Below, piece by piece: positions 27,249-64,000 of a stretch of 64,000 nt of DNA (position 1 is the stretch's first letter; every line of letters starts with the position of its first letter). The notes under the pieces are model-generated. The model was given only the letters and a program-made list of their open reading frames with translations, was not told the DNA's origin and searched no databases. The position numbers and the translations under genes are program-made. Source of the stretch: Bryobacteraceae bacterium (GTDB taxonomy: Bacteria > Acidobacteriota > Terriglobia > Bryobacterales > Bryobacteraceae); assembly GCA_049512775.1 (NCBI GenBank), contig JBEKWU010000004.1:3096-67095 (forward strand), written 5' to 3'.

Positions 27249-27257
27249 AGCGGCGCC

Positions 27258-28007: not shown

Positions 28008-28405
28008 GGCCGGCTCCTCGCCACCAGCTTGGGATCGATATGGCAGTCCATGCAGTATGGCCCCTTGACGCCCACGTAGTTGTGGCAGCGGTCGCAGAAA
28101 TCGGCCTTGTTTGTGTGGCAGCCGGAGAGGCAGGTGCCGGTGAGGCTCATGTTGTATGTTTTGCCGTTGAACGCGGTGAAGCTGCGCACGTTGCGGCGAA
28201 CCACTTCCTCGCGCCAGTTCACGAGCAGAGCCATGTGCGACGTCTTCATGTAATCGACCGGCGCCACGCACTGCTTCTCCTGGGCGGGCAGCCGGACCTC
28301 GGGCGGCTTCGCGGTCTTCCCTGCGGCCGCGTTGTACCAGGCGGGGAACGTCAGCAAGCCGAGAAACGCAGCCAGGCCCGCGTAGATGACGCCTTGGTCA
28401 CGCAT
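28004..28405 (-). CDS. dsrJ: DsrJ, the membrane-anchored triheme cytochrome c
   Basis: N-terminal anchor, the conserved Cys in EKQCVAP, and three heme sites: CLSGCH (CX3CH spacing), CDRCH and CMDCH. Confidence 0.85.
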   Translation of the reverse strand: MRDQGVIYAGLAAFLGLLTFPAWYNAAAGKTAKPPEVRLPAQEKQCVAPVDYMKTSHMALLVNWREEVVRRNVRSFTAFNGKTYNMSLTGTCLSGCHTNKADFCDRCHNYVGVKGPYCMDCHIDPKLVARSRP

Positions 28406-30014
28406 GGGCCGCCTCCGCCTGCGGGAGCGGCTCGCCGCGCAGATCCGTGGTCCGCTCCTTCTCGTCCTTCATGACGAGCGCGTTGCCGACCAGTTCGTGC
28501 ACCCCGGCCACGTCGACGCCGGGCACCCAGTACTCGAGCAGGGTGGGCAGGGTTGCCTTATCGATGGCGCACATGCACGTCAGCATGTTCACGCCGTACC
28601 TCTCCTTGACGTACTTGACCGCGTTCGCGCGAGGCAGGCCGCCACGGAGCCGCATCTCGAGGTTCTCGTCCGTGCCCAGACCCGCGCCGCTGCCGCAGCA
28701 AAAGCTCTGCTCGCGAATCGTGTTTTCGGGCATCTCGTGGAACCGGCGGCAGACGCTGCGCAGGATGTACCGCGGCTCCTCGAGCAGGCCCATCCCCCGC
28801 GCAATGTTGCAGGAGTCGTGATAGGTGACGGTCAGGCGGTCGTTGCGCATCGGGTCGAGCTTCAGCTTCCCGTTCGCGATCAGGTCGGCGGTGAACTCGG
28901 CGATGTGCACCATCTTGGTCGCGCGCGCGTTTTCAAACCGCGTACCGGTGATGGGCGAAACCGGCTCCTCCAGAAAATCGGCCGGGCCGTTCATCGTGTC
29001 CATATACTGATTCAGTACCCGCCACATGTGGCCGCACTCGCCGCCCAGAATCCACTTCACCCCCAAACGCTTCGCCTCGGCGTAGATCTTCGCGTTCAGC
29101 CGCTTCATCATTTCGTGCGAGGCGAACAGGCCGAAGTTGCCGCCCTCGGAGGCGAACGCGCTGAAGGTGAAGTCCAGGCCGATCTCGTGGAACAGCACCA
29201 GGTAGCCGAGCAGCGTGAAATAGTGCGGCGAGGCGAAGTAGTCGGCCGACGGCACGACAAACAGAATCTCCGCGCCTTTCCTGTTGATCGGCGCCTCGAC
29301 GCGCGCGCCGGTGAGCTCTTCGATCTCGTCCACCGCGAAATCGATGCTGTCCTTAAACCCGTGCGGCTGGATTCCGAGATGGTTGCCCGTGCGGTAGCAG
29401 TTGGCCGCCGGCTCGATGACCCAGTTGATGTTGCAGCCCACCAGGTTGAGCAGCTCGCGGCCGATCATGGTGATCTCCGCCGTGTCGATGCCGTAAGGAC
29501 AGAACACCGAGCAGCGCCGGCACTCCGTGCACTGGTAGAAGTAGTAGAACCACTCCTTGACGACATCCTCGGTAAGGTCGCGTGCGCCGGCGAGTCCGCC
29601 AAAGAGCCGGCCGGTCAGCGTGAAGTAGCGGCGGTAGACCGAGCGGATCAGCTCGGCGCGCAACACCGGCATGTTCTTGGGATCGCCCGAGCCCAGGTAG
29701 AAGTGGCACTTGTCGGCGCAAGCGCCGCAGCGCACGCAAATGTCCATGAACAGCCGGAACGAGCGGTACTTGTCAAGCCGCTCTTTCATGCCCTCGAGCA
29801 GAATCCGCTTCCAGTCCGGCGGCAGCTTCCAATCCTTGTCGAAGGGCTGCCACTCGCGCGGATTTGGCATGTCCAGGTACTTGAGATTCTTCGCGGCGGC
29901 GCTGTAGCAGAAGACTCCTTTGCGGAATTCGACCGCCGGGTCTCTCCAGTCCCTCTCAGGCGGCTGGTAGTCGACCTGGACGAGTTGCTCGGGCCGCGGC
30001 GTTGGATCAGCCAT
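28398..30014 (-). CDS. dsrK: DsrK, the HdrD-like catalytic iron-sulfur subunit
   Basis: MADPTPRPEQLVQVDYQPPERDW..., with CVRCGACADKC, CTECRRCSVFCP, HDSCNIARG and FCCGSGAG CCG motifs. Start chosen 2 nt after the dsrM stop. Confidence 0.9.
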   Translation of the reverse strand: MADPTPRPEQLVQVDYQPPERDWRDPAVEFRKGVFCYSAAAKNLKYLDMPNPREWQPFDKDWKLPPDWKRILLEGMKERLDKYRSFRLFMDICVRCGACADKCHFYLGSGDPKNMPVLRAELIRSVYRRYFTLTGRLFGGLAGARDLTEDVVKEWFYYFYQCTECRRCSVFCPYGIDTAEITMIGRELLNLVGCNINWVIEPAANCYRTGNHLGIQPHGFKDSIDFAVDEIEELTGARVEAPINRKGAEILFVVPSADYFASPHYFTLLGYLVLFHEIGLDFTFSAFASEGGNFGLFASHEMMKRLNAKIYAEAKRLGVKWILGGECGHMWRVLNQYMDTMNGPADFLEEPVSPITGTRFENARATKMVHIAEFTADLIANGKLKLDPMRNDRLTVTYHDSCNIARGMGLLEEPRYILRSVCRRFHEMPENTIREQSFCCGSGAGLGTDENLEMRLRGGLPRANAVKYVKERYGVNMLTCMCAIDKATLPTLLEYWVPGVDVAGVHELVGNALVMKDEKERTTDLRGEPLPQAEAAHA

Positions 30015-30016
30015 GT

Positions 30017-31009
30017 CTACTCCTTCTCGAGCGGCAGCCCGGCCGCCTTGATCTTCTCCCGGAACTCCTCTTCCCATTCCGCGTAGGTGTGCACCTTCAC
30101 CGGATAATTCCAGGGATTGACGTGTCTCCGCATGCGGTTGTTGTTGGCCAGGTTTCTCGTGGGGCTCAGGAAGACCCCGCCCATGTGCATCAGCTTGCTG
30201 AAGGGGAAGTAGGCGAGCAGCGCGGCGAGCAGCGTCAGGTGCACGAAGAAGAGCGGACCCAGGCCGGCCGGGACCACCGGCGAGAACGTCACCAGGCCCA
30301 TGGCGAGTTGTTTGACCGCGAGCAGGTCCACGCGCGTGAAGTAGCGCATGAGCACACCCGAGAGCGCCAGGCCGATCAGCAGGAACAGCGCAAAATAGTC
30401 CGTGAACAGCGAGACGTACCGCACTCGCGGGTTCCTGACCCTGCGCCCGAGCAGGTAGGCCAGCGCCGCCAGGATCACGACATCCGTCGCATAAAGCTCC
30501 GGCGTGCCGACCTGGAAGAAACCATCAACCGCCTGGAGCGCCAGCACGAACCCGGGAATCGGCTCCAGGAAAAAGCGCAGGTGCCTCAGGAAAATGACGA
30601 GGAACGACCAGTGAAACGCCAGCGCACCCAGCCAGAGCAGCTTGTCCTCGCCGTAGACCAGCCGCGGGCCCTCGCGCAGCTCGGCCCTCGAGTTGCGGAA
30701 TAGCGAGCGGAAGAGCAGGATCTCGAGCGCCATCCGCCCTGCGACCCCAAGCGTCGTGGTGGGGCTTTCGAGCCGGGCGGCCTTGATCCACGACAGTGAT
30801 CTCTGCTGGCCACAGGTCGTCGGAATGCGGAATGGCACCGGCGTACGCGCCCACCGGCTCACTCGGTACGCGACGCCTGCCAGGAAGACCGCCATCGCCG
30901 CGTACGGCACCCCTACCCCGAACAGCACGCGCGCGCCGGCGATCTCGCCCGCCGACAGGCCGAGCGCCGCCAGCGCCAGGACCGCCACAAGCGAGTAGAG
31001 AGCGGTCAT
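30017..31009 (-). CDS. dsrM: DsrM, the NarI-like di-heme b membrane subunit
   Basis: 330-aa polytopic protein with FRIPTTCGQQ, LAFHWSFLVIFLRHLRFF and FPFSKLMHMGGVFLSPTRN. It sits before dsrK. Confidence 0.9.
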   Translation of the reverse strand: MTALYSLVAVLALAALGLSAGEIAGARVLFGVGVPYAAMAVFLAGVAYRVSRWARTPVPFRIPTTCGQQRSLSWIKAARLESPTTTLGVAGRMALEILLFRSLFRNSRAELREGPRLVYGEDKLLWLGALAFHWSFLVIFLRHLRFFLEPIPGFVLALQAVDGFFQVGTPELYATDVVILAALAYLLGRRVRNPRVRYVSLFTDYFALFLLIGLALSGVLMRYFTRVDLLAVKQLAMGLVTFSPVVPAGLGPLFFVHLTLLAALLAYFPFSKLMHMGGVFLSPTRNLANNNRMRRHVNPWNYPVKVHTYAEWEEEFREKIKAAGLPLEKE

Positions 31010-31494
31010 CGCGCTTCACCGTCCGATCGGGGGTACCCAATCCTGTCGAGCACGTATGTACCGCGCCGCGCCTCGCCGGCCTTGATCTCGTCCATCTTCT
31101 CCCGGCACCTCACGTACAGATCGAACGCGGTCAGCGCCATCTGGTCGATCCGCTGCTCCAGTGCCGGCGTCAGGCCGCCCGGCTCCTCGTGGCGCAGCAC
31201 GTCCTTCAAGACAAAAATGAAGCCCACCGCCTGGCTAGCTGTGAAGTCCTGCACCGCCCGGATCTTGACAACCTGGTCGAGCACGGGCGTGAGACGCGCG
31301 AGATTCATCTCGCCCAGCAGTTCCTCCAGGAGCACGGGCAGAGCTTCGCGGAGCGCGTGGCCGACCGGATTCCGGAAGCGATCCTTCTCCTCCGCCAAGA
31401 AGCGCGAGGTGAGGAACGGATACGCCCCCAGCGTGCGGGCCAGCCAATGCCGCGCAACCGCATCCCGATCGTAGGGAACCACGTCGTCGTTCAC
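31006..31494 (-). CDS. dsrT: DsrT (RsbRD N-terminal-domain protein)
   Basis: ...FLAEEKDRFRNPVGHALREALPVLLEELLG...LDQVVKIRAVQDFTASQAVGFIFVLKDVLR is the RsbRD_N pattern. The GTG start lies 2 nt after the dsrC stop, and the stop overlaps the dsrM ATG. Confidence 0.7.
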   Translation of the reverse strand: MNDDVVPYDRDAVARHWLARTLGAYPFLTSRFLAEEKDRFRNPVGHALREALPVLLEELLGEMNLARLTPVLDQVVKIRAVQDFTASQAVGFIFVLKDVLRHEEPGGLTPALEQRIDQMALTAFDLYVRCREKMDEIKAGEARRGTYVLDRIGYPRSDGEAR

Positions 31495-44099: not shown

Positions 44100-44744
44100 T
44101 CATGCCGGCGGCTTGGGACGAACAATCGGGTGTTGGCATCCCAGGTAGAAGCAGGTGCGCCGCCCGAATTCTCCAAACCGGCAATTGTTGCGAAAGTAGA
44201 TCTCGCACTGAAGGCAGACTTCGTCTAGCTTCTCCCGCTCACTGGCGATGCCGGCTGCCAGCCGGTCCAGGAGCACGGACGCATGCTGCACTTCCTCCGG
44301 CGAGAACTGCTCGAAGATCTTGACGGCCTTCTGATTTCGGGCCGCCTCGTAGGCTTCGAGCAGCCGGCGACTGGCTTCGGTCAAGCTAATAGCGCTGGTG
44401 CGCCGGTCGCCCTGAATGTCATTCCGCCGGAGCAGGCGCCGGCGTACCAGTTTTTCCACCGCCTTGCTGGCGGCCGGACTGCTCACCCCAAGAAAGGTCG
44501 CCGCATCGCCAATCGTCACTTCATCGGTCTGCGCCACCAGGTACAGCAGCTTGAGTTGGGCAAAAGTCAATTTGTCACCGACCACCTCGCGCAGAACCGC
44601 CGCTTCGCAGACGTCGCGGACGGCCTTGGCGAAGACTCGAGCGCTAGCCAGGAATTGGTGCGTGAGGTCGGGGGTGATCGTGTTCTCCACGTCCTGCCTT
44701 CCTGCCCGGCCCGGGACCGCCACGCCGGGCCAATAGGTAACCAC
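44100..44744 (-). CDS. MarR-family transcriptional regulator with a C-terminal five-cysteine extension
   Basis: Winged-helix core (LTFAQLKLLYLVAQTDEVTIGDAATFLGVSSPAASKAVEKLVRRRLL) followed by the tail VCLQCEIYFRNNCRFGEFGRRTCFYLGCQ (C-x2-C-x7-C-x9-C-x4-C). The start is uncertain: ATG at 44744, or GTG at 44690 with AGGAAGG upstream. Confidence 0.75.
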   Translation of the reverse strand: MVTYWPGVAVPGRAGRQDVENTITPDLTHQFLASARVFAKAVRDVCEAAVLREVVGDKLTFAQLKLLYLVAQTDEVTIGDAATFLGVSSPAASKAVEKLVRRRLLRRNDIQGDRRTSAISLTEASRRLLEAYEAARNQKAVKIFEQFSPEEVQHASVLLDRLAAGIASEREKLDEVCLQCEIYFRNNCRFGEFGRRTCFYLGCQHPIVRPKPPA

Positions 44745-45038: not shown

Positions 45039-45848
45039 ATGTCCATCATCACGATTTCGCGGGGATCCTTCAGCGGCGGCAAAATGCTGGCCGAGTGCCT
45101 GGCGTGCAGTCTGGGCTACCGGTGCATTGATCGCGACGTCATCGTCGAGCGGGCGGCTGCCTCCGGAGTGTCGCAGGAAGACCTGAGAGACGCGTTGGAA
45201 AAACCTCCGGGGTTTCTGGACCGCTTCAATCACAAGAAGTACGTGTATCTGGCACTGATCCAAGCCGCGCTTGCCGAGGAGGTCCGCACCGGTGGGGCGA
45301 TCTATCACGGCTTGGCGGGTCACCTGCTGCTCCGGGAAGGGCCGCGCGTTCTGCGCACTCGAATCATCGCGCCGATGGAGTTCCGCATCCGCATGGCGCG
45401 GGCGCGACTGAAGCTGGAGCGCGGCGACGCCATCGCCTATATCCAGAAGATGGACCAGCACCGCCGGAAGTGGACCCAGTTCCTTTACGGAGTGGATTGG
45501 GGCGATCCGTCGCTGTACGACATCGTGCTGAACCTGGACCGCGTCGAAATCGAAGAGGCTTGCCATGTGATCGCCACCATGGCCCGCCAGCGGTGCTTCG
45601 AGTTCACCCCCGAGTGCCAGGCGGCGATGGACGACTTGGCGCTCGCCAGCCGCATTCGAGCCAACTTGGCCCTCAATGAGCCGACCTCCAACCTGGAAGT
45701 CGAGGTAGTTGCACGCCGGGGATCGGTCTCCATCAAGGGAAAACTCGTTACCATGGACCAGTATGAGGAAGTGGAACGGGTTGCGCGGGCGGTGCCCGGC
45801 GTGACCGAACTGAACCTGGACGAACTGGCGCCGAACGTCCAGGCCTAG
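45039..45848 (+). CDS. Cytidylate-kinase-like family protein with a C-terminal BON-like domain (paralog 2)
   Basis: MSIITISRGSFSGGKMLAECLACSLGYRCIDRDVIVERAA... is collinear over its full length with 13005..13811. Confidence 0.75.
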   Translation: MSIITISRGSFSGGKMLAECLACSLGYRCIDRDVIVERAAASGVSQEDLRDALEKPPGFLDRFNHKKYVYLALIQAALAEEVRTGGAIYHGLAGHLLLREGPRVLRTRIIAPMEFRIRMARARLKLERGDAIAYIQKMDQHRRKWTQFLYGVDWGDPSLYDIVLNLDRVEIEEACHVIATMARQRCFEFTPECQAAMDDLALASRIRANLALNEPTSNLEVEVVARRGSVSIKGKLVTMDQYEEVERVARAVPGVTELNLDELAPNVQA

Positions 45849-45924
45849 CGTGACCTCCGGAGGCCGGGACGTGAGCGAAGAGCACGCGCGGGAGGGCAAG
45901 GGATCATAGGGCCTGGTTGTCTGT

Positions 45925-46845
45925 ATGCCGATCTTTCTGCCCATAGCCGGAATCAGCACCAACCTGGTTCCGTTGCTGGCCGCGGGCTTCCTGGTGGGCT
46001 TTCTCTCGGGGCTCACGGGCGTCGGCGGGGGGTTTCTCCTCACGCCCATGCTGATGATGATCGGGGTTCCGCCTACCCTGGCTGCGGCTTCCGGATGCAA
46101 TTCGATCGTGGCTACATCGTCGTGCGCTGTCGGCGCTCATTTCAGGCTGGGGAACGTGGATGTCAAGCTGGGCGCCGTTCTCCTGATAGGTGGTTTGCTC
46201 GGGTCCGCCATCGGCGTCGAGATCATCAAGGTCCTGGCCACGTTGGGCGAAGCCAACTTCCTCATCAAAGTCACCTATGTGGTACTGCTCGGCGGGATCG
46301 GCGGTTACATGTTTGCCGATGGCTTCCGAGCGCTTCGCGGCAGACCGCCGGCGCCGGATTCGCCCGGCGCCGGCAAGCTCCAGACCTGGCTCGAGAAACT
46401 GCCCTGGCAGGTCAGTTTTTCGCGTTCGGGCGTCCGGCATTCGGTCCTGGTCCCCCTGCTGCTCTGCTCGCTGGTAGGAATCCTGAGCGCCATCATGGGG
46501 ATCGGCGGCGGCTTCCTGATCGTGCCCATGATGATCTACCTGCTGCGCATCCCGTTGCGCATGGCGGTCGGCACAAGCCTCTTCCAGATCCTGTTCACGT
46601 GTATTGGCGTGACGTACATGCAGGCTGTCACGAACCGCACTGTGGATCTCGAACTGGCGCTCCTGGTGGGGGCGGGCTCCACCGTGGGCGCTCAACTCGG
46701 CGTGCAGCTCAACCGGCATCTGCGTGGCGAGCACCTGAAGGTTCTGCTGGCCAGTCTGGCCCTGCTTGTGTCGGTGAAGATGGCGATCGGACTGGTGCTG
46801 ACTCCTGCCAGCCTGCTCTCTCATGTAATGGTCCAAACTCCATGA
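45925..46845 (+). CDS. TauE/SafE (DUF81) family anion permease, copy A
   Basis: MPIFLPIAGISTNLVPLLAAGFLVGFLSGLTGVGGGFLLTPMLM..., with the second-half repeat IMGIGGGFLIVPMM. The stop overlaps the next ATG. Confidence 0.85.
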   Translation: MPIFLPIAGISTNLVPLLAAGFLVGFLSGLTGVGGGFLLTPMLMMIGVPPTLAAASGCNSIVATSSCAVGAHFRLGNVDVKLGAVLLIGGLLGSAIGVEIIKVLATLGEANFLIKVTYVVLLGGIGGYMFADGFRALRGRPPAPDSPGAGKLQTWLEKLPWQVSFSRSGVRHSVLVPLLLCSLVGILSAIMGIGGGFLIVPMMIYLLRIPLRMAVGTSLFQILFTCIGVTYMQAVTNRTVDLELALLVGAGSTVGAQLGVQLNRHLRGEHLKVLLASLALLVSVKMAIGLVLTPASLLSHVMVQTP

Positions 46846-48197
46846 GACCTCCAGGGCTTGCGGTGATCGGTTTGACCTTGTCCGCGCTCGCGCTGGCAGA
46901 CTCTTCCGGTGAGGACCCCCGCCCGCCGGGCGAGCGGCAGGCGTCCCCGGCGCCGGATCCAAGCGATTCCCGATGGCCCAGAATACCTGCCGAACGTCTT
47001 CCCGACTGGCTGAAATTGGGGATCGAACTCCGCGGCCGCTTGGATACCGAGACGGGGTTCAAGTTCAATCCCGGCCCGGATGACACCTACTATCTGCACC
47101 GGCTTCGTTTGGACGTCGGCATCGAGCCGAACTCGTGGCTGCGTTTCTTCATCCAGGGGCAGGATGCACGGGTTGGCGGCTACAACCGTCCGCTGCCGGC
47201 CAACGTGTCTAACTCGATGGACCTTCGGCAGGGCTACGTGGAATTCGGCCGGCCGGACGAGAAGTCCTGGGGGCTGCGCGCCGGGCGGCAGGAACTGCGG
47301 TTCGGGGAGGCGCGCCTGGTGGGTTCGTCCAACTGGAGCAACGTGGCGCGAAGTTATGACGCCCTGCGCCTCGCTTACAAAACGACCGGAGCGCGTCTGG
47401 ATTGGTTTGCGGCGGCCATCGTACAGACTGTAGACGGCCGGTTCGACCGGCCGATGCTCCGCAACGGCTTTTACGGATTCTATTCTTCGTTCGACAAGCT
47501 GATCCGCAAGTCGGTCGTCGAGCCGTACGTCTTCTGGAAGACAAACTCGAGGGTGCGCGGCGAATCGGGGCGGATTGGCGACCAGGACGTCTACACCCCC
47601 GGGTTTCGGATGGCGGGCGATCTGCCCGGACGGTTCGATTACAGTGTCGAAGTGGCCTTTGAGTCCGGCCATTTCGCGCAGGATCGGATCCGCGCGTGGG
47701 CGGGACACGGGCTGCTGGGCTGGAAGCTGCCCGTTGCGGCCTGGAAGCTGCGCCTGGTGTCCGAGTACAACCACGCCTCGGGGGACGGGAATCCCCGGGA
47801 CGGCCGCCACGGTACTTTCGACCCGCTATATCCGACCAATCACGCCCAGGACGGCGCCGCCGACCGGATCACCTGGCGGAACATTCATGACCTGATGGGC
47901 GGGATCGAGGCAAAGCCAACGAAAAGATGGCGCTGCGAGCTTGACTACCACGCTTTTTGGCTGGCCACCCGCCAGGACGGCTTGTACACGGCCTCCGGCG
48001 CCCTATGGGTGCTCAACCGGACGGCCACCAGCAGCTTCGTAGGTCCGGAAATCGACTTGGAGGTTCTGTATCGGCATTCAGACCGGCTTCAACTGGGATT
48101 CGGCTGCGGGCACTTGTTCGCCGGGCCGTACCTCAGGCAGTCCATCCCAGAACGGGGAGCGACTTACCCGTATGTGATGTGGAGTTACCGATTGTAG
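46842..48197 (+). CDS. Alginate-export (AlgE-like) family outer-membrane beta-barrel porin
   Basis: Signal peptide MRPPGLAVIGLTLSALALA. Then LKLGIELRGRLDTE, YYLHRLRLDV, FIQGQDARV, LRQGYVEF, ELRFGEARLVGSSNWSNVARSYDALRL and a terminal ...YVMWSYRL aromatic end. Confidence 0.75.
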   Translation: MRPPGLAVIGLTLSALALADSSGEDPRPPGERQASPAPDPSDSRWPRIPAERLPDWLKLGIELRGRLDTETGFKFNPGPDDTYYLHRLRLDVGIEPNSWLRFFIQGQDARVGGYNRPLPANVSNSMDLRQGYVEFGRPDEKSWGLRAGRQELRFGEARLVGSSNWSNVARSYDALRLAYKTTGARLDWFAAAIVQTVDGRFDRPMLRNGFYGFYSSFDKLIRKSVVEPYVFWKTNSRVRGESGRIGDQDVYTPGFRMAGDLPGRFDYSVEVAFESGHFAQDRIRAWAGHGLLGWKLPVAAWKLRLVSEYNHASGDGNPRDGRHGTFDPLYPTNHAQDGAADRITWRNIHDLMGGIEAKPTKRWRCELDYHAFWLATRQDGLYTASGALWVLNRTATSSFVGPEIDLEVLYRHSDRLQLGFGCGHLFAGPYLRQSIPERGATYPYVMWSYRL

Positions 48198-48231
48198 ACT
48201 TGCCCGCCACTCGCGGCGGCGGAAAGATCAT

Positions 48232-49335
48232 ATGCCCATTTTCTTGCCGGTAGCCGGGATCAGCATCAACATGTTCCTGCTGATCGGCGCCGGCGCACTG
48301 ATCGGCTTCCTGTCGGGCCTGCTCGGTGTCGGTGGCGGCTTCCTGCTGACGCCCATCCTGATGATGATCGGCGTCCCTCCGACCATAGCTGCCGCTTCCG
48401 ACAACAATGCCATTGTCGCGACCTCTTCTTCGGGCGTGGCCGCGCATTTCCGGATCGGCAACGTGGATATCAAGATGGGAACGGTCTTGCTGCTGGGCGG
48501 CCTCGTCGGCGCCGCCATTGGCGTCGAGATCATCAAGATCCTGCGAACAATGGGGAACGCCGGCGTTCTGATTGAGCTGACCTACATCGTGGTGCTGGGC
48601 GGGACCGGCGGATTCATGTTCTTGCAGAGCTTGGCAACCATGCGGCGCGGCACGATCATCCTCAAGACGCGCCAGCCCGTCAGACCGAGCCATTTCTTGA
48701 GCCGGCTGCCTTTTCAAATGCGGTTCCCCCACTCCCGTGTGCAGCACTCGGTGTCCGTTCCGTTCCTGCTGGGCGCACTCGTGGGCATTCTGTCGGCGAT
48801 CATGGGCGTGGGCGGAGGCTTCATCATGGTGCCGATGATGGTCTACCTGCTGCGCATGCCTCCCCATATCGCGGTCGGCACCAGTCTGTTCCAGATTCTG
48901 TTCACGTGCGCCGGAGTGACTTACATGCAGGCGGCGACGAACCACAGCGTCGACCTGGTCCTGGCGTTGTTGCTGGCGGCCGGATCGACGATTGGAGCGC
49001 AGATCGGCGCCCGCGTCAGCCGGGTGCTGCGCGGCGAGCAGTTGATGATCCTGCTGGCGACGCTGGCGCTTCTGGTGGTAGGGAAGATGACGGTGAGCTT
49101 GGTGGTCACGCCGTCGAACCTGCTGGACGTCGGCCATTCCGCGGAGTCGAAGCCGGCGCCGCGACCTGCCGGGCACGCGGGGTTTCAGGGCCCTCCTCGA
49201 GTGGCGTTCCCCAGTTCGGCCAGCGTACCCCTGTGGGGCGAGGGTCCGCGCCCGCCCGCCCCTGCGCTGCCGATGCGTTCGCAAGCCGCCCGCGGCAATG
49301 CGCCTCGGGAGGTGTTCCGGGGAGGGCCGTCATGA
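48232..49335 (+). CDS. TauE/SafE family anion permease, copy B, with a low-complexity Pro-rich C-terminal tail
   Basis: The first ~300 aa are collinear with copy A (MPIFLPVAGISINMFLLIGAGALIGFLSGLLGVGGGFLLTPILM...). The stop overlaps the next ATG. Confidence 0.85.
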   Translation: MPIFLPVAGISINMFLLIGAGALIGFLSGLLGVGGGFLLTPILMMIGVPPTIAAASDNNAIVATSSSGVAAHFRIGNVDIKMGTVLLLGGLVGAAIGVEIIKILRTMGNAGVLIELTYIVVLGGTGGFMFLQSLATMRRGTIILKTRQPVRPSHFLSRLPFQMRFPHSRVQHSVSVPFLLGALVGILSAIMGVGGGFIMVPMMVYLLRMPPHIAVGTSLFQILFTCAGVTYMQAATNHSVDLVLALLLAAGSTIGAQIGARVSRVLRGEQLMILLATLALLVVGKMTVSLVVTPSNLLDVGHSAESKPAPRPAGHAGFQGPPRVAFPSSASVPLWGEGPRPPAPALPMRSQAARGNAPREVFRGGPS

Positions 49336-50186
49336 TCGGGCTTCGGATCGGGCTGACGATCGGAATCGCGGCTTGGCTGCAACCGGCGCCCCCTCCCCCG
49401 CGGGCGGAAGGGCTCTCCGTGAAGCTGACGCCCGAAGTCATCCGGATGGGGGCGTTTTACAGCGGCGAGTGGATGCGAATCTCCGGCACAGTCGCGCGCA
49501 ACTCGAAAGTGATTGTAGTCATCCGCGGTCCAAACACCGAGGAGCTGTTCAACCGAAAAGCGCGAGTCGGCCCGATCTGGATCAACTCCGGCAAGGTGCA
49601 CATCTCCGGAGTGCCCTCCCTGTTCCTCTGCTACAGCTCCGAGCCCGTTGGCAGCCTTCTCCGGCGCGACGAGATTGAACGAAGGCAGCTCGACGAACTG
49701 GCGATCAAACGGCAGATGATCGTCGCGCCGAAGGAAATGGACCAGGAGATCATCCGGGCACACTACGTGGCGCTGAAGACCGAGGAAAGGGTCTACCGGG
49801 TTGTCAGCGACGGCCTCAAAATGGGCGCCCCGGGAGAAACCGGCGTTCCGTTTTCGGTGGACTTTCATTGGCCCAGGAAGGCTTCGCCGGCCCACTATGA
49901 GGTCCGTGTCTACGAGTGCCGCGATGGCGCCGTCGTCGGAAGGGTAGCGGCTCCGCTCGACGTAGTCAAAACCGGCTTCCCCGCCGCAATAGCGGATCTG
50001 GCCAGGGAACACGATTCCGCTTACGGAGTGGTCGCGGTACTGGTTGCCGTGTTGGTGGGGTTTGGGATCGATTTTCTGGCCGCCGGCCTCCGCAGGAAAC
50101 TGCGAGGCGCCTCGGCCGCCGCCAGCGAGCGGCGCGCTCCAGAGGAGGAACCGGAGCGGCTTGGCAAAGGCATGGGCAAGCCCTGA
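49332..50186 (+). CDS. Exported protein with a C-terminal TM anchor, TIGR02186 (Alph_Pro_TM)-like
   Basis: Signal peptide MIGLRIGLTIGIAAWL. Then FYSGEWMRISG, VIVVIRGP, RKARVGPIWINS and the C-terminal helix VVAVLVAVLVGFGIDFL. The family assignment is from memory of the usual DUF81 neighbour and should be confirmed with an HMM. Confidence 0.6.
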   Translation: MIGLRIGLTIGIAAWLQPAPPPPRAEGLSVKLTPEVIRMGAFYSGEWMRISGTVARNSKVIVVIRGPNTEELFNRKARVGPIWINSGKVHISGVPSLFLCYSSEPVGSLLRRDEIERRQLDELAIKRQMIVAPKEMDQEIIRAHYVALKTEERVYRVVSDGLKMGAPGETGVPFSVDFHWPRKASPAHYEVRVYECRDGAVVGRVAAPLDVVKTGFPAAIADLAREHDSAYGVVAVLVAVLVGFGIDFLAAGLRRKLRGASAAASERRAPEEEPERLGKGMGKP

Positions 50187-50203
50187 AGCAGTCAGGAGGT
50201 GTC

Positions 50204-50503
50204 ATGAACAAGATGTTGCGGAGTAAGTGGCTGCAGGCGATCCTGTTCGGCTTGGCGCTCCTTCCCACCCGGTTGCTCGCGGTGGAGGGGAGCGGCCAGG
50301 CGATCGTGATCGTGGCCGACAGCCGCAGGTACACCGGCTGGCAGGCTTGGTGGACCAATCTGTACAACGAGAGCCACGCGGGCTTCGCTCTCGTCACGGT
50401 TCTCGTCATCCCCACGATCGGCCTGATCCTCGGCAAGCTGACTGGCTGGTTGCTGGCTCGCACCGGGATCAACCTCAAGTCAAGAGAGCTCGCCGAGCGC
50501 TAA
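50204..50503 (+). CDS. Small (99 aa) protein with a signal peptide and a C-terminal TM helix; unknown function
   Basis: AGGAGG lies 6 nt upstream of the ATG. MNKMLRSKWLQAILFGLALLPTRLLAVEG... and the C-terminal FALVTVLVIPTIGLILGKLTGWLL. Confidence 0.6.
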   Translation: MNKMLRSKWLQAILFGLALLPTRLLAVEGSGQAIVIVADSRRYTGWQAWWTNLYNESHAGFALVTVLVIPTIGLILGKLTGWLLARTGINLKSRELAER

Positions 50504-50515
50504 GGAGGTCGCGCC

Positions 50516-51583
50516 ATGGAATGGCTCTATACGCTGATGCCCATCGCGGGCGTCCAGATCTTCTGGCCGGGATTGGTGATCCTCGGCTTTGGTGTCGGCA
50601 TGATGGGCGGTTTTTTTGGCATGGGCGGCGGCTGGATGGTGACTCCAGGCCTCAACTTCCTTGGCTTCCCGATGGCATTCGCGATCGGGACGGACATCAC
50701 CCAGATGGCCGGGCCCTCGCTCATCTCGACCATTCGGCACGGGAGGTTCGGCAACGTCGATTACAAACTGGGCGCCATTATGATCGGCGGCACGGTGGTC
50801 GGCTTCGAGCTGGGCGCGCAGATGATCATGTGGCTGGAACGGATCGGCAAGGTGGACGTGTATGTGCGCTCCGGCTACCTCGTTGTCCTGACCTTGATCG
50901 CGTGGCTGGTATTCGCGGACGCCTCGAAGCGCCGAAAGAAGGAGCGGGAGGCAAGGGCCGCCGGGAAGGCGCTCGACGCTCTGGCCACCGGAATCGAGTG
51001 GCACAAGACTCTGCACAAGATCAACATCCCGCCAGTGATTCACTTCAAGCGGGCCGGCATCCGCTGCTCGGCCTGGCTGCCAATTTCCGTGGGTGTTTTA
51101 ACCGGCTGGATGGCGGGCGTTCTGGGGATCGGCGGCGGCCTGATCCGCATGCCCGCCCTGATCTACCTCATCGGGTGCCCGACTCACATCGCGGTCGGCA
51201 CCGACCTCTTCGGGATCGCAGTCTCCGCACTCTACGGAGCGGGCTCATACAGCTACAAGGGGAGGACGGAGTTGCTGGCCGCGGTCATTATGCTGGCCGG
51301 GGCTTGCATCGGCGCTCAGATCGGCTCGGTGGCCACAAAGTACGTGAAGGGCTATGGCATCCGGATTTTTTTTGGCATCGCGGTCATCGGTTGCGGTGTT
51401 TCAATCCTCTTGAAGCTGATCGGCGCGGCAAGCCCGGCCTTTAGAGCCGTCCTGGACGGCGCGGCGACCGTCTTGATCCTGGGACTCGTGACCGCGCTTT
51501 CGCTGTACATCCTCATACGGTTCATCGGTGGCGTTCGCGAGGAACTGGCGGCGAAGAGAGAAGCCGTGCAAACGGCTCGGTGA
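50516..51583 (+). CDS. TauE/SafE family anion permease, copy C (divergent)
   Basis: GVGMMGGFFGMGGGWMVTPGL and GVLGIGGGLIRMPALIYL are half-repeats. A charged central loop is present (KRRKKEREARAAGKALD). Confidence 0.8.
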   Translation: MEWLYTLMPIAGVQIFWPGLVILGFGVGMMGGFFGMGGGWMVTPGLNFLGFPMAFAIGTDITQMAGPSLISTIRHGRFGNVDYKLGAIMIGGTVVGFELGAQMIMWLERIGKVDVYVRSGYLVVLTLIAWLVFADASKRRKKEREARAAGKALDALATGIEWHKTLHKINIPPVIHFKRAGIRCSAWLPISVGVLTGWMAGVLGIGGGLIRMPALIYLIGCPTHIAVGTDLFGIAVSALYGAGSYSYKGRTELLAAVIMLAGACIGAQIGSVATKYVKGYGIRIFFGIAVIGCGVSILLKLIGAASPAFRAVLDGAATVLILGLVTALSLYILIRFIGGVREELAAKREAVQTAR

Positions 51584-51593
51584 GGAGCAGCCA

Positions 51594-52202
51594 ATGGCGC
51601 GCAATCATTCTTCCATGACTGTCGAGACTGTTGCCGTTCTCGCCTGTACTCTTGTTGCGGGCGGATGCGGCGGCTTCGGCCAGGTGAACCAGGGTCGCGT
51701 CATACAATACGACCGGGAAAAGGGGCTGGTCACCTTCATCCAGGATTCCAATTACCGCGAGCCTGGCAAACCGCGATTCGACGTGCTGCCGCCGGTCACT
51801 GTGAAGATCCCCGCCGACCCGAACGAGATGGGGCCGGCGCCCGATGCCGGCGTGCTGCTGGCCGTGGATTCGGAGCGCACGCAGCTCGTCACCTACGACG
51901 CCGGAGCCCAGCGGTTCAGGACCGTTCCGTACACGCCGCTCGAGGAGCATCGCAACGTGTACCGCGACGATCCGCGCCTCCGAGGGCGCCTGCCGCGCAT
52001 CGATCGCGAAAAGAAGACGATCACGCTGTACGATCCGCGGCAGCGGCTCCTGTTGACCTTTTCCGTGAGCGATGAAAACTTCCGCCTGCCGGAGGACACC
52101 TGGAAGGCCGGCGACGACATCCGCTACTACTACAAGCAGCCGGGCCAGGCGCTGCGGATGATGAACGTCACCAGGACGGACATCGGCAAAGCTGGGAAGT
52201 AG
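51594..52202 (+). CDS. Lipoprotein of unknown function
   Basis: The lipobox-like LVAGGC lies at the end of the signal sequence (MARNHSSMTVETVAVLACTLVAGGCGG). The body is hydrophilic. Confidence 0.65.
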   Translation: MARNHSSMTVETVAVLACTLVAGGCGGFGQVNQGRVIQYDREKGLVTFIQDSNYREPGKPRFDVLPPVTVKIPADPNEMGPAPDAGVLLAVDSERTQLVTYDAGAQRFRTVPYTPLEEHRNVYRDDPRLRGRLPRIDREKKTITLYDPRQRLLLTFSVSDENFRLPEDTWKAGDDIRYYYKQPGQALRMMNVTRTDIGKAGK

Positions 52203-52236
52203 CCCGGGATGTCCCGTGCTATAGTGGCGTCAACCA

Positions 52237-54798
52237 ATGGCTGCGTGGTGGCGGAAAGAAAAGCAACGCGAGGCGCCCGGTTCCGCCGAGCAGCGGATTC
52301 GCCTGAAGTACCACAGCTTCCGCGAGTTGCTCTCCCTGAATAACGAGTGCCTGGAGCTGATGGCCGGGCTCCAGGAAGACCTCCAGTTCGTTCCTCCCCG
52401 CCGCGATGTGATCGAGGATCGCATTGCGGCCATCTACGAGAAAGCCGCAGCGATCGTGGGCACGCTGGAAAAGCTCACGGGCATTCGCTATGCGCAGCTT
52501 GGCGATGCGGTGGAAGCACAACGCGGCGAGGTCGAGCGCTACATCGCGGCGTGCCAGGAACTGGTGACGCCCCGGCTTGCCGCGCGCCTCTCCGAGGTGA
52601 GCGCCGCGCACGCCGGCGAAGTGGGAGGCAAAGCGGCCGCGCTCGGCGAGGTCAAGAACAAGCTCGGGCTGCCGGTTCCGGATGGTTACGTGCTCACCAC
52701 GGAGGCCTACCGCCAGTTCTGCGGAATCCCGTTGTGGAAAGAGATTCGCGATTCCATGCGCGGTTTGGATCTCAACGACCTGGAAACACTGGAAGGAGTC
52801 TCGCGGAAGCTTGTGGACGCGGCGATGGCCCGCCAGGTCCCGCGCGCCGCAGAAATCGCGATTACGGAGAGGGCCAAAACGCTGGACGCGCGCGGGCTCG
52901 GCCTGGCCGTCCGGTCGAGCGCGGTGGGCGAAGGCGGGGAGAGGACGTTTGCAGGCCAGTTCGTGAGCCTGCTCAACGTCCCGCCCGAGCAGCTTGTCGA
53001 CGCCTACAAGCGCGTCGTCGCGGGACGGTTCAGCGACCGCGCGCTCTTCTACCGGCTGTCGACCGGCTTGCTCGAAGTCGACAGCCCAATGGCCGTGCTC
53101 TTCCTTCCCGTCATCCGAGCCAGGGCCTCCGGCATCATGTATACTCGGGACCCCAGCGATCCCAAGAGCAAGACGCTGTGGATCACGGCCACGTGCGGGC
53201 TGGGTCTCGATATTGCCAGCGGCCGCATGCCCGCCGATCTGTTCGTGGTCTCCCGCACCCCTCCGCACGCCATCCTCGAGCGGACCATTGTGCACAAGGA
53301 AGCTGCGATCGTCGCGGAAGCGGGCGGCGGAATCGCACGCGCCCCGCTCGACCAAGCCGATGCCGACGCGCCCAGCCTCGCGCCGGCGGACCTCCAAACG
53401 CTCAGCGCCTGGGGCGTCCGCGTCGAGGAGCATTTCCGGACCCCGCAGGATATAGAGTGGGTGCTGGGCGAAGACGGCCGAGCGTGGATTGTGCAAGCCC
53501 GGCCACTCGTTCTCGCCGCCATAGGCCGCGGCAAATCGCGAGCACGCGGCGAGCCGCTGTTCTCGGGCGGGCGCACGATCTATCCCGGACGGGTATCCGG
53601 CGGCGCGTACCTGATCGAAGACTTGAGTGCGCTGAGCCGCACTCCCGCGGGCGCGGTCGTCTTCATGCGCCGCGCCAGCCCGGAGATCGTCGAGGTGTTC
53701 CCGCGCATCGCCGGCCTGGTGGCGGAGTGGGGGAACCTGGCGGGCCACGTGGCGGCCCTGCTTCGGGAATTCAAGGTCCCCTCGGTGTTTCAAATGCCGG
53801 GCGCCTTCGAGCGCTTGCACAACGGGGATCCGGTGAGCCTGGATGCGGTACAGCCGCGAGTTTACGCGGGAATGTTGTGGCCGCCTCGCAGGATCGAGGA
53901 AGTAGTCGCGGACGGCCCGGCGGAACGGGCGGGCGATCCGATCAGCCGCCGCCTGCTGACATTGCACTTGTTGGATCCTTCTGGGTCGAACTTCCGGCCC
54001 GCCGGCTGCAAGTCCACTCACGACGTGCTGCGCTACTGCCACGAGAAGGCGATCGAGGCCATGTTCGCCGTCAACGACCTCGAGCGCGAGCGCGGGCCGC
54101 GCTGCACGAAGCGGCTCGAAACCAGCTTGCCGATAAACCTGCAGGTCCTCGATTTGGGCCGTGGCCTCGCGCTAACTGAACCGCAGTGCTCTACCGTAAC
54201 CCCTGAGCAGATAGTCTCCCGGCCGTTTCAGGCTCTCTGGAAGGGAGTGAGTCATCCCGCGGTCACCTGGACGCGCCAAATGCCCGCGAGCTTCAGCGAC
54301 CTGGCCTCGGTGATGGCGGGCGCCCTCTCTTCGCACGCCGGAGCGATGCGGGCGCTTGGGGAGGAGAGCTACCTGCTGGTGGCCGACGAGTACATGAATC
54401 TTAACTCGCGCCTGGCCTACCATTTCAGCCTCGTCGACGCCTGCCTTTCCGACCGCCCGAGCAATAATTACATTGCCTTTCGCTTCGAAGGCGGCGGCGC
54501 GACGAGGTTTCGTAGAGACCTTCGGGCCTGTTTCATCGAAGCCTGCCTCGCTCACTACGGCCTCCGCGTGGACCGGCGCGGGGACTTGGTGAACGCCTGG
54601 CTGAAGAAAGCCTCGGCGGAGGAGACCCAAGAGAAGCTGGATATCCTGGGCCGCCTGATGGCCTGTTCCAGCCAACTGGATATGTACATGACCAGCTCGG
54701 AGGTCATGAAGTGGTACGTCCGCCAGTTTCTCGCGGGTAACTATAGTTTTCAGGCAACCGGCAAGGAAGACAGGGTGACCGGGGAGCAACAGGTCTAG
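52237..54798 (+). CDS. PEP-synthase/PPDK-like phosphotransferase (PPDK_N ATP-grasp + swivel His domain + ~280-aa uncharacterised C-terminal domain)
   Basis: EVGGKAAALGEVKNKLGLPVPDGYVLTTEAY, SSAVGEGGERTFAGQF, QDIEWVLGEDGRAWIVQARPL. The mobile domain is ...IAGLVAEWGNLAGHVAALLREFKVPSV. Confidence 0.75.
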   Translation: MAAWWRKEKQREAPGSAEQRIRLKYHSFRELLSLNNECLELMAGLQEDLQFVPPRRDVIEDRIAAIYEKAAAIVGTLEKLTGIRYAQLGDAVEAQRGEVERYIAACQELVTPRLAARLSEVSAAHAGEVGGKAAALGEVKNKLGLPVPDGYVLTTEAYRQFCGIPLWKEIRDSMRGLDLNDLETLEGVSRKLVDAAMARQVPRAAEIAITERAKTLDARGLGLAVRSSAVGEGGERTFAGQFVSLLNVPPEQLVDAYKRVVAGRFSDRALFYRLSTGLLEVDSPMAVLFLPVIRARASGIMYTRDPSDPKSKTLWITATCGLGLDIASGRMPADLFVVSRTPPHAILERTIVHKEAAIVAEAGGGIARAPLDQADADAPSLAPADLQTLSAWGVRVEEHFRTPQDIEWVLGEDGRAWIVQARPLVLAAIGRGKSRARGEPLFSGGRTIYPGRVSGGAYLIEDLSALSRTPAGAVVFMRRASPEIVEVFPRIAGLVAEWGNLAGHVAALLREFKVPSVFQMPGAFERLHNGDPVSLDAVQPRVYAGMLWPPRRIEEVVADGPAERAGDPISRRLLTLHLLDPSGSNFRPAGCKSTHDVLRYCHEKAIEAMFAVNDLERERGPRCTKRLETSLPINLQVLDLGRGLALTEPQCSTVTPEQIVSRPFQALWKGVSHPAVTWTRQMPASFSDLASVMAGALSSHAGAMRALGEESYLLVADEYMNLNSRLAYHFSLVDACLSDRPSNNYIAFRFEGGGATRFRRDLRACFIEACLAHYGLRVDRRGDLVNAWLKKASAEETQEKLDILGRLMACSSQLDMYMTSSEVMKWYVRQFLAGNYSFQATGKEDRVTGEQQV

Positions 54799-55293: not shown

Positions 55294-55322
55294 TTGACCT
55301 TTGTCCGTACCCGCCATAAAAT
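55294..55322 (+). promoter_or_regulatory. Near-consensus sigma-70 promoter: TTGACC, 17-nt spacer, TAAAAT
   Basis: ttgacc (55294-55299) and taaaat (55317-55322). A ~100-nt leader containing the GGGAG-TTTAT-CTCCC hairpin precedes the ATG at 55427, which has GGGAGG upstream. Confidence 0.55.
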
Positions 55323-55426: not shown

Positions 55427-55681
55427 ATGGCGAAAGTTCCCGTTGAAACACTCGCCGAAGAGATGTACCAAATGGTGGCTGAATACGCCGGCAAGAAGAA
55501 CCTGAAGGCCGGCGATCTCACCAAGGCCATGATCTCCAAGCACGGCGAGGATGCGTGCGACAAGGATGACTGCAAGCACGCGATCCGGTTGCTGATAGAT
55601 TCCGCCCGCTGCGTCTACAGCTATTTCGGCGGATCCTACATCACCATTCCGCACAAGGAAGGCGCCGCGCCCGAAGTCTGA
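55427..55681 (+). CDS. Small DsrD-like protein (putative winged-helix; tentative)
   Basis: 84 aa. KAGDLTKAMI...CKHAIRLLIDSARCVYSYFGGSYITIPHKEG parallels, from memory, the DsrD pattern ...VKK.L..LV....L.YWSSGSTTMYGL. It sits immediately upstream of dsrN. Confidence 0.5.
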   Translation: MAKVPVETLAEEMYQMVAEYAGKKNLKAGDLTKAMISKHGEDACDKDDCKHAIRLLIDSARCVYSYFGGSYITIPHKEGAAPEV

Positions 55682-63552: not shown

Positions 63553-64000
63553 CTACGCCGGCGGCCTGCCGGACGGTGCAAACACGGCCAACACCGGGCA
63601 CGGGGCGTGGCGCAGCATTCGGATCGTGGTTGCCCCGATCACGGTCGCGTCGAAGAACCGCCGGTGGCGCGCTCCCAGGACTACTAAGTCGGCGTTGATC
63701 TCGGAAGCGCGCGCAATCACCGCTTGCGCCACGTCCCCCTCGGCCGTGATCTCGCGGATTGCACAGCCCGCGCGCTCCGAATCCGGGATCCAGGAGCAGA
63801 GGTCCTCGATCGAATCCGTCGCTCCCGCTTCCCGGACGTGCAGCACCGTTACCGCCGCTCCGAAGCACCTGACGAGTCCGGCTGCTGTCCGCAGAGCCTG
63901 CAACGCAATCGGGGAATCGTTCACCGGGCAAAGGATGTGTTTGACTTCCACGGACTGAGTATCACCGCGGACGGCCAGCACCGGAACCGAGGCCTCGCGA
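63553..64000 (-). CDS. Universal stress protein (tandem-USP type); 5' part lies outside the window
   Basis: HILCPVNDSPIALQAL..., ADLVVLGARHRRFFDATVIGATTIRMLRHAPCPVLAV. The frame stays open upstream of the listed start to the window edge (...REASVPVLAV is the end of a preceding USP domain). Confidence 0.8.
   Translation of the reverse strand, partial: REASVPVLAVRGDTQSVEVKHILCPVNDSPIALQALRTAAGLVRCFGAAVTVLHVREAGATDSIEDLCSWIPDSERAGCAIREITAEGDVAQAVIARASEINADLVVLGARHRRFFDATVIGATTIRMLRHAPCPVLAVFAPSGRPPA

Follow-up and report, generated by a model that had tools for sequence, protein, structure and literature searches.

A TauE permease operon in an acidobacterial sulfur island as a candidate sulfate uptake system

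How does a sulfate-reducing acidobacterium bring its sulfate into the cell? The question is raised by a 64,000-nucleotide stretch of DNA from a Bryobacteraceae bacterium (GenBank assembly GCA_049512775.1, contig JBEKWU010000004.1, positions 3,096 to 67,095), here called the window. The DNA is that of a high-GC acidobacterium and forms a dissimilatory sulfur island; the nearest named relatives are Bryobacterales metagenome-assembled genomes (MAGs). Sulfate uptake by dissimilatory reducers is unsettled, most acutely at the micromolar sulfate of peat and freshwater. Some sulfate-reducing Acidobacteria have neither a SulP nor a DASS carrier; for instance, the acidobacterial MAG SbA7 has the full pathway and no sulP or dass (PMC6018796). 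A preliminary description of the window had reported no SulP, DASS, CysZ, CysP or ABC sulfate transporter in the island, and no SulP, DASS, PiT or ABC sulfate carrier is found among the window open reading frames scanned. What the island does contain is an operon built around three permeases of the TauE (TSUP) family, and this operon is put forward as the best candidate for the machinery by which these bacteria would transport sulfate or a related sulfur anion. The reading preferred here, with a probability of roughly one half, is that the operon encodes inner-membrane uptake of a sulfur oxyanion, most probably sulfate, which would feed the Sat/AprBA/QmoABC/Dsr pathway.

The nine-gene operon

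Gene coordinates were recomputed from the window sequence, and families were assigned by the cut-offs of Pfam and NCBIfam hidden Markov models. Nine genes, all on the + strand, span 45039-54798:

45039-45848, +, CK-BON, a cytidylate-kinase-like P-loop protein with a C-terminal BON domain (PF13189, E 7e-37, and PF04972); first gene of the operon
45925-46845, +, TauE-A, 306 aa (PF01925, E 6e-48, 164 bits, cut-off 32.6)
46842-48197, +, Alginate_exp porin, 451 aa, with an N-terminal signal-like sequence (PF13372, E 8e-65)
48232-49335, +, TauE-B, 367 aa (PF01925, E 4e-47, 161 bits)
49332-50186, +, Alph_Pro_TM protein, 284 aa (PF09608, E 1e-43, 150 bits, cut-off 24.5)
50204-50503, +, DVU0150-family protein, 99 aa (NF040783 (/PF28216), 88.6 bits, cut-off 70)
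50516-51583, +, TauE-C, 355 aa (PF01925, E 8e-41, 141 bits); matches DVU0149
51594-52202, +, DUF4881 lipoprotein, 202 aa (PF16222, E 1e-57, 195 bits, cut-off 27); matches DVU0148
52237-54798, +, phosphoenolpyruvate (PEP)-synthase-like dikinase, 853 aa (PF01326, E 5e-66, 223 bits, and PF00391, 42 bits)

None of the nine proteins has a Pfam match to SulP, DASS, PiT/CysP, SulT ABC or E. coli-type CysZ. The order, strand and positions of the first eight genes (45039-52202) are those of the preliminary description, and were reproduced from the sequence. Two junctions are 4-nt ATGA overlaps, as had been claimed: the stop of TauE-A overlaps the start of the porin, and the stop of TauE-B overlaps the start of Alph_Pro_TM. 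The remaining gaps, put at 10-76 nt, measure 76, 34, 17, 12 and 10 nt. The family check that the same description proposed was run, and the three PF01925 matches, PF13372 and PF09608 all lie far above their gathering scores, as do PF13189, PF04972 and PF16222.

The end of the unit had been placed at 52202. It instead continues through the 853-aa dikinase gene, which follows the DUF4881 gene after 34 nt, to 54798. Because the gaps run from -4 to 76 nt, no terminator-like site was found within 45039-54798, and a 628-nt gap with a promoter-like site follows the dikinase gene, the nine genes are predicted to form one operon.

Two conserved modules

The comparison covers about 130 related loci. One set was anchored on Alph_Pro_TM and took one genome per species, giving 44 loci, 41 of them non-alphaproteobacterial. 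The query of this genome scan was an alignment of eight sequences. A second set, anchored on DUF4881, consists of 39 metagenome loci of at least 7 kb.

The 41 Alph_Pro_TM loci represent several orders of Acidobacteriota, together with a single Binatia MAG and a single MAG that bears the label 'delta proteobacterium'. All except one have a TauE, of the TauE-B type (40/41), and 25 have at least two. CK-BON is found in 37 and the dikinase in 26, several loci being truncated, while DUF4881 (8/41) and a DVU0150-like gene (6/41) are less frequent. These counts define a first module of CK-BON, TauE, Alph_Pro_TM and dikinase, which is conserved across Acidobacteriota. In three loci (L006-L008), TauE, Alph_Pro_TM, dikinase and CK-BON are each present in two copies. 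Such a stoichiometric duplication speaks for the preferred reading.

The second module, as read from the DUF4881 loci, consists of the DVU0150-family protein, TauE and DUF4881, often with the dikinase. A TauE-C-type gene lies immediately 5' of DUF4881 in 46/51 loci, and in 34 of the 39 long loci a DVU0150-family gene lies directly upstream of the TauE-C-type gene. The dikinase is present in 28 of the 39, in 20 of them directly after DUF4881. Thus, the window operon is best described as a composite of two conserved modules plus extras. The preliminary description had overlooked CK-BON and the dikinase as the most conserved partners. Its expectation that the small envelope proteins and the porin would be conserved beside TauE in relatives holds for the small proteins and fails for the porin.

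Linkage to sulfate genes

Both modules lie beside the genes of the sulfate pathway. At least one of sat, apr, qmo, dsrN or dsrMK is found within 10 kb in 18 of the 41 Alph_Pro_TM loci, and a further 10 have siroheme genes only. The gene at the shortest distance is often sat: it is no more than 10 kb away in 17/41 loci and directly upstream of CK-BON in nine, and eight loci repeat the order qmoC-sat-CKBON-TauE-dikinase-TauE-Alph_Pro_TM. In the DUF4881 set, sat lies within 10 kb in 19/39 loci. The typical order there is aprA-qmoABC-sat-(CKBON)-DVU0150-TauE-DUF4881-dikinase, and other linkages to sat are sat-p99-TauE-DUF4881-dikinase and dikinase-dsrN-sat.

By our estimate, a single-copy gene would by chance lie no more than 10 kb from an arbitrary position in about 0.3% of loci. 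By this measure both modules occur beside sat, qmo, apr and dsr far more often than expected by chance, and the association persists across different rearrangements.

The same module in Desulfovibrio

The second module can be recognised in an operon of Desulfovibrio vulgaris Hildenborough, DVU0150-DVU0146, which has the same DVU0150-family, TauE and DUF4881 genes in the same order; the preliminary description had missed this link. A PCR primer for DVU0149 translates to KFGNVDY, a motif of the TauE-C family, and primers for DVU0148 translate to the DUF4881 motifs FSMPDHT and VSLRFM. These translations, the NCBIfam match and the gene order of two related loci together identify DVU0150-0146 as this module. 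Of these two loci, L048 carries a protein named Desulfonatronum sp.; the other is L050. Both contain sensor kinases, a sigma-54 activator, Usp, the DVU0150-family protein, TauE and DUF4881, followed by membrane proteins of about 95 and 262 aa and a nearby dikinase. The small membrane proteins of L050 have no Pfam match. The dikinase is of the same architecture as that of the window and 33% identical over its full length, orphan C-terminal domain included. These loci differ from the window operon by the additional membrane proteins, Usp and two-component regulators; CK-BON and Alph_Pro_TM are missing from them, and no sulfur-pathway genes adjoin.

The DUF4881 family is 50-60% identical across phyla. 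Between Acidobacteriota and the Desulfonatronum-type loci (L048-L050, L059, L065), TauE-C is 69-77% identical (the range seen for L048 and L050) and DUF4881 57-61%. This unusually high cross-phylum identity suggests horizontal transfer of the DVU0150-TauE-DUF4881 module.

In D. vulgaris the operon is up-regulated in sulfate-free syntrophic co-culture and down-regulated after a shift to sulfidogenic (sulfate-reducing) conditions (PMC4265775). It has been assigned, under 'transmembrane transport', to the regulon of the sigma-54 activator DVU0151 (PMC4641369). The literature searched offered nothing useful on DUF4881, TIGR02186, DVU0146/7 or Dde_069x. The accessible part of Hausmann 2018 names 'syntrophic genes 1-4 of unknown function', and from it no match to the genes described here could be established.

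Expression in a sulfate-reducing relative

Expression of the second module can be read from the supplement of Dyksma & Pester 2023, which covers the Sulfopaludibacter MAG CO124 in four oxic and four anoxic replicates. Values are in reads per kilobase per million (RPKM):

gene 303, sat: oxic low; anoxic 20-29
gene 306, dsrD: oxic 0; anoxic 15-33
gene 307, dikinase, 62% identical to that of the window: oxic 0; anoxic 0.3-0.8; adjusted p 0.0012
gene 308, Porin_O_P: oxic 0; anoxic 0.2-1.2; adjusted p 0.023
gene 309, DVU0150-like: oxic 0; anoxic 0-2.5; no adjusted p given
gene 310, TauE, 66% identical to TauE-C: oxic 0; anoxic 0.7-1.6; adjusted p 0.0064
gene 311, DUF4881: oxic 0; anoxic 0-0.6; no adjusted p given

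Genes 307-311, which adjoin sat and dsrD, have anoxic means of about 0.25-1.0 RPKM. The second module of CO124 is thus transcribed only under anoxic, sulfate-reducing conditions, and CO124 has been shown to run the pathway reductively (PMC10564751). The curated sulfur table of Dyksma & Pester 2023 names no sulfate carrier and omits genes 307-311. The earlier proposal that the cluster serves the Sat/Apr/Dsr pathway is therefore backed as a functional tie, both by the linkage of the loci and by expression in CO124.

The permeases

TauE-A and TauE-B are 63% identical to each other, while TauE-C is only 30% identical to either. In a crude hydropathy scan each TauE shows 7-10 hydrophobic windows, which overlap, and nine predicted helices are listed for the TauE-C orthologue of CO124 (Dyksma & Pester 2023 supplement). 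A sequence search with TauE-B against the PDB gave no match.

TauE-B ends in a low-complexity proline- and alanine-rich tail of about 65 residues (~300-367). The tail is missing in most homologues and its length is kept in the nearest ones (proteins of 366-370 aa in L001 and L051). It may serve as a linker, or it may simply result from the overlapping reading frames.

The exported partners

Two of the permeases have extracytoplasmic partners of their own: TauE-B has Alph_Pro_TM, and TauE-C has the DVU0150-family protein and DUF4881.

Alph_Pro_TM. This protein has a signal peptide, an Ig-like beta-sandwich ectodomain and one C-terminal helix (residues 233-251). Its AlphaFold2 model (pLDDT 89) finds only generic Ig-like matches in the PDB with Foldseek, at TM scores of 0.2-0.3. 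It had been described as TIGR02186-like. The Pfam family PF09608 stands, and membership of the TIGR02186 equivalog does not: the score is below the equivalog cut-off (78.5 against 255.25 bits), so the 284-aa protein belongs to the broader Pfam family only. The alphaproteobacterial TIGR02186 proteins share with it the Pfam domain, the exported domain with a C-terminal transmembrane helix, and a position after a sulfur-family permease. They are about 30% identical to the window protein, and their loci carry Usp; neither CK-BON nor a dikinase is seen in the stretch covered, and the context is not one of dsr genes. In Alphaproteobacteria, Alph_Pro_TM directly follows a YeeE-like PF04143 gene in two loci (L044, L045) and a TauE gene in a third (L046), with Usp as the next gene in all three. 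The permease partner of this protein is thus exchanged between two unrelated sulfur-associated families. It is proposed to be an auxiliary subunit of TauE-B.

DVU0150-family protein. The match to the family is full length (residues 3-99 on model positions 3-99). The protein has a signal peptide and one transmembrane helix, with hydrophobic segments at 9-27 and 59-77.

DUF4881. The lipobox residue Cys25 is nearly invariant in 66 sequences, and the CO124 orthologue is listed as a predicted lipoprotein (Dyksma & Pester 2023 supplement). The AlphaFold2 model is all-beta (pLDDT 86), and Foldseek found no relative in the PDB. DUF4881 is proposed to be the periplasmic partner of TauE-C.

The idea that these partners are classical solute-binding proteins is unsupported; one weak match, to the molybdate-binding domain of ModE, has an E value of 0.33 and falls short of significance.

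The two kinase-like proteins

CK-BON. The motif iTISRGxFsGGK is conserved in 53 homologues. A true CMP kinase is ruled out by the TIGR02173 score (31.4 against 102.1 bits), and CK-BON is a member of the uncharacterised family PF13189 'Cytidylate_kin2' only. A periplasmic BON protein is ruled out as well, there being no signal or transmembrane segment. Since neither CK-BON nor the dikinase has a hydrophobic segment, both are taken as cytoplasmic.

The window also has a paralogue of CK-BON, with 71% identity to it, at about 12990-13811 (+), which is followed by a gene resembling precorrin-2 dehydrogenase/siroheme synthase (the pair spans about 12990-14635, +). Siroheme genes (uroporphyrin methyltransferase, precorrin-2 dehydrogenase) are also found divergently beside CK-BON in many other loci (L006-L008, L014, L018, L021, L025, L041).

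Dikinase. The protein consists of an N-terminal helical region, an ATP-grasp domain (PPDK_N), a phosphohistidine swivel domain and an orphan C-terminal domain of about 290 aa. Catalytic His503, in a G-H motif, is conserved in at least 95% of 34 homologues. Its alignments to PEP synthases and its matches in the PDB end at about residue 569. No Pfam match was found beyond residue 537 or in the N-terminal region. The family defined by the C-terminal domain comprises 1132 representative clusters, and nearly all of these share the architecture of about 850 aa. The ATP-grasp domain, the swivel and the catalytic His are shared with PEP synthase, pyruvate phosphate dikinase (PPDK) and rifampicin phosphotransferase. 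Their PEP/pyruvate TIM barrel or rifampicin-binding domain is missing, and the orphan domain is present instead. A PEP synthase or PPDK is thus ruled out, by the lack of a PEP-binding domain and by the NF005057 score (229 against 598 bits).

Two fusion proteins involve this family. In P0489 (1142 aa), Alph_Pro_TM, its transmembrane helix and the dikinase are fused in frame. In P0435 (1248 aa), a low-molecular-weight (LMW) phosphotyrosine-phosphatase/ArsC-like domain precedes the dikinase and a lectin-like tail follows it. Several other members, of about 1060 aa, have an extra C-terminal concanavalin/lectin-like domain.

The outer-membrane porin

The porin matches PF13372 over nearly the whole model (positions 2-386 of 395; 219.5 bits, cut-off 25.2). 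No alginate genes were found, its neighbours being TauE and sulfur-pathway genes, and it should not be called an alginate exporter. A phmmer search of PDB sequences, including the solved AlgE, gave no porin match at E up to 1.

The preliminary description treated the porin as a fixed partner of TauE. The 4-nt overlap, which couples the porin translationally to TauE-A, is kept in L001, L051 and L053, whose porins are 73, 70 and 66% identical to that of the window. Homologues at 62, 58, 57 and 48% identity lie in unrelated, housekeeping contexts. Among sister loci with AprA 91-93% identical, two (L004, L036) have no porin at this position, and a third (L005) has a 36%-identical Alginate_exp porin elsewhere, after DUF4881. 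A core subunit is thus ruled out, and the Alginate_exp porin is an optional accessory of a narrow clade with porins at least 66% identical. L001 also carries an extra TauE-A copy at 11382-12565, followed by a 90-aa open reading frame that is a decayed C-terminal porin fragment, which points to a tandem duplication of the TauE-porin pair and later loss of the second porin.

Porins of the unrelated Porin_O_P (OprO/P) family are found after Alph_Pro_TM in L038 and L043, flanking the cluster in L120, and before the DVU0150-like gene in CO124. In the two sets of loci that are unbiased in this respect, a porin is present in 4/41 Alph_Pro_TM genome loci and 2/39 DUF4881 metagenome loci, and the two families have been recruited at no fewer than five different points of the cluster. 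This repeated recruitment fits an external anionic substrate and does not define the system. The idea of an envelope-spanning module thus keeps some backing, from the recurrent recruitment of porins, but no single porin is constant.

The pairing of a TauE with a dedicated outer-membrane porin had also been thought to be new. It has a precedent in TsaS/TsaT of Comamonas testosteroni T-2, the founding TSUP system, in which a DUF81/TSUP permease and a dedicated outer-membrane anion channel form a proposed two-component, envelope-spanning route for 4-toluenesulfonate uptake (Mampel 2004, cited in PMC4287615). Here too, a TSUP permease gene is coupled to a porin gene. TsaS/TsaT differs in that it handles an aromatic sulfonate in a catabolic setting, and no Alph_Pro_TM, DVU0150, DUF4881, CK-BON or dikinase partners are reported for it. 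The porins here are optional and come from two unrelated families.

What the operon may do

The TSUP permeases, their exported partners and the two cytoplasmic kinase-like proteins are conserved as a set, are transcribed and regulated together, and are bound in the genome to the genes of sulfate activation and reduction. If it is an uptake system, the TauE permeases would carry sulfate inward, the periplasmic partners would act as auxiliary or substrate-capturing subunits, and the porin, where present, would let the anion cross the outer membrane. The dikinase and CK-BON might regulate uptake by phosphotransfer. In the most speculative step, drawn from PPDK chemistry, the dikinase would sense ATP, AMP and pyrophosphate (PPi); this is proposed because Sat and Apr together yield AMP and PPi.

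Several points weigh against sulfate uptake. The loci are phylogenetically related, so their linkage counts are not independent, and 13/41 Alph_Pro_TM loci have no sulfur gene within 10 kb. The L048/L050 module adjoins dCache sensor kinases, a sigma-54 activator and Usp in place of sulfur genes. The syntrophy response could reflect a signal other than the lack of sulfate, and D. vulgaris has other candidate sulfate carriers. Transcripts of the CO124 module are about 20-fold or more below those of sat. The periplasmic partners do not resemble known solute-binding folds (Foldseek against the PDB), and the roles given to CK-BON and the dikinase are conjecture. To our knowledge, no member of these subfamilies has been the subject of a transport assay. 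Finally, the family name TauE stems from a proposed sulfite exporter (PMC4287615).

This last point leads to the strongest rival, which is possible though doubtful: the same machinery may handle another sulfur anion (sulfite, thiosulfate or an organosulfonate) or work in the opposite direction. Variants include sulfite detoxification, thiosulfate uptake and sulfate export in an oxidative mode, and the paralogues may differ in substrate, with which the 30% identity of TauE-C to TauE-A and TauE-B is compatible. Family precedents go both ways: sulfite export is proposed for TauE of Cupriavidus necator and sulfonate import for TsaS (PMC4287615). These Acidobacteria also carry DsrL, which is found in sulfur oxidisers too (PMC6018796). 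Moreover, Alph_Pro_TM pairs with YeeE-like PF04143 proteins. The YeeE-like family comprises thiosulfate and sulfur importers. On the other side, no neighbour is tighter or more frequent than sat, the enzyme of which acts on sulfate, and CO124 expresses the module only while it runs the pathway reductively (PMC10564751). The D. vulgaris operon is on without sulfate and off after the sulfidogenic shift, and induction without sulfate fits scavenging better than export of a product.

A more specific form of the sulfate-uptake reading is offered tentatively and is rather unlikely as a whole. It holds that regulated, high-accumulation sulfate uptake in freshwater and soil reducers may be the work of a new class of multi-subunit secondary transporter, a TSUP permease with a dedicated single-pass Ig-like or lipoprotein subunit and a tethered dikinase switch, of which DVU0150-0146 would be the scavenging version. 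Here the membrane-tethered dikinase would read the ATP/AMP/PPi state of the cell and switch the permease by His phosphotransfer.

A further rival, unlikely on present evidence, turns the argument around. The core would be a cytoplasmic nucleotide or phosphoryl-transfer device that recycles the AMP and PPi of Sat and Apr, or a signalling relay. TauE would carry a non-sulfur cargo, for instance an organic acid or a metal, and the place beside sulfur genes would have to do with energy metabolism or regulation and not with the supply of a substrate. In the half-reaction of PPDK-type enzymes, ATP + Pi and AMP + PPi are converted into each other. The dikinase keeps its ATP-grasp domain and catalytic His, and CK-BON is a nucleoside-monophosphate-kinase-like P-loop protein. 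The fusion of an LMW phosphatase to the dikinase suggests phospho-signalling, and in the Desulfonatronum-type loci dCache sensor kinases are neighbours of the module. Nor is the family confined to sulfur, because RS-1 requires a TauE to form magnetite (PMC4287615). Against such a device, the dikinase has no PEP/pyruvate-binding domain, the constant partners are membrane permeases and exported proteins, and the repeated recruitment of anion porins points to an external anionic substrate. In the P0489 fusion, a transmembrane helix ties the dikinase to the periplasmic Alph_Pro_TM, an arrangement more in keeping with a transport complex in the membrane than with a soluble enzyme of metabolism.

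That these are unrelated membrane proteins brought together by chance inside a sulfur island is very improbable: TSUP genes are numerous (nine in D. vulgaris; PMC5840216), some will lie near sulfur genes by chance and the porin is clearly dispensable, but the comparative data contradict it, as the gene sets recur in about 80 independently anchored loci with order and overlaps kept and fusions formed, the genes are co-regulated in CO124, and protein identities of 40-90% argue against one mobile segment.

Known TSUP systems

Parts of the sulfate-uptake reading are not new. For some sulfate reducers, TSUPs are the only sulfate carriers that have been put forward as candidates, and some TSUP genes of sulfate reducers lie near sat and apr (Marietou et al. 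2018, PMC5840216). Work cited in the same review gives the 'CysZ' of Corynebacterium glutamicum, also a TSUP, a role in sulfate import. These proteins share their Pfam family with TauE-A, -B and -C, a likeness at family level, and they stand alone, with no described accessory or kinase partners. TauE of C. necator and SafE, proposed exporters of sulfite and sulfoacetate, also have PF01925 in common with the permeases here. They are tied to sulfonate degradation and export, whereas the present cluster is tied to sulfate activation and has multi-component partners.

Thus, TSUPs as proposed sulfate carriers and the TSUP-porin uptake pair are already known. New with respect to the literature searched would be the constant association with Alph_Pro_TM, CK-BON and the orphan-domain dikinase, the recognition that the D. 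vulgaris syntrophy operon is the same module, the fusions, and the repeated recruitment of porins.

The surrounding island

Upstream of the operon, on the - strand, lie dsrL, dsrBA, qmoCBA, a CxxCxxCC protein gene and aprAB, followed by a divergent MarR gene. Downstream, on the + strand, are dsrD, a dsrN-like amidase gene, sat and dsrMK-like genes. Other features of the window are as follows:

16307-17224, -, TauE-D, the fourth TauE (PF01925, 130 bits, cut-off 32.6)
44100..44744, -, MarR-family regulator (PF12802 and PF01047), divergent, between aprB and the operon
55427-55681, +, DsrD, 84 aa, 68% identical to CO124 DsrD, without a Pfam match

The MarR protein is a possible local regulator of the operon. 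The order AprB-MarR-CKBON is conserved in L001, L004, L005, L036, L051 and L053, and also in L105, L107 and L129 at 54-62% identity. The dsrD gene opens a dsrD-dsrN-sat unit, with a promoter-like site at 55294-55322 in front of it.

A fourth TauE beside a CoADR-rhodanese gene had been reported, and it is present: the stop codon of TauE-D overlaps the start of that gene (Pyr_redox_2 and Rhodanese, 14655-16310, -) as ATGA, which couples the two translationally. In the cst operons of Firmicutes, TauE genes accompany persulfide and sulfide-stress genes. By analogy, the TauE-D/CoADR-rhodanese pair may handle reactive sulfur species and not sulfate.

The region 21120-31015 (-) contains several paralogous DsrMK-, DsrP- and NrfD-like genes. 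One of them (21120-22994, -) joins an NrfD domain to a domain of multihaem cytochrome c3, and two additional ones encode CCG/Fer4 DsrK-like proteins. These membrane redox modules exceed the canonical dsrMKJOP set. A Usp gene lies at the end of the window (63553-63999).

Significance

If the operon is indeed a sulfate uptake system, a gap would be closed in the catalogue of sulfur-cycle genes that is used for reading metagenomes. Alph_Pro_TM, DVU0150, DUF4881 and the orphan domain of the dikinase, four uncharacterised families, would gain a role. A function could also be proposed for the 'syntrophy' operon of D. vulgaris, in an organism that is genetically tractable.

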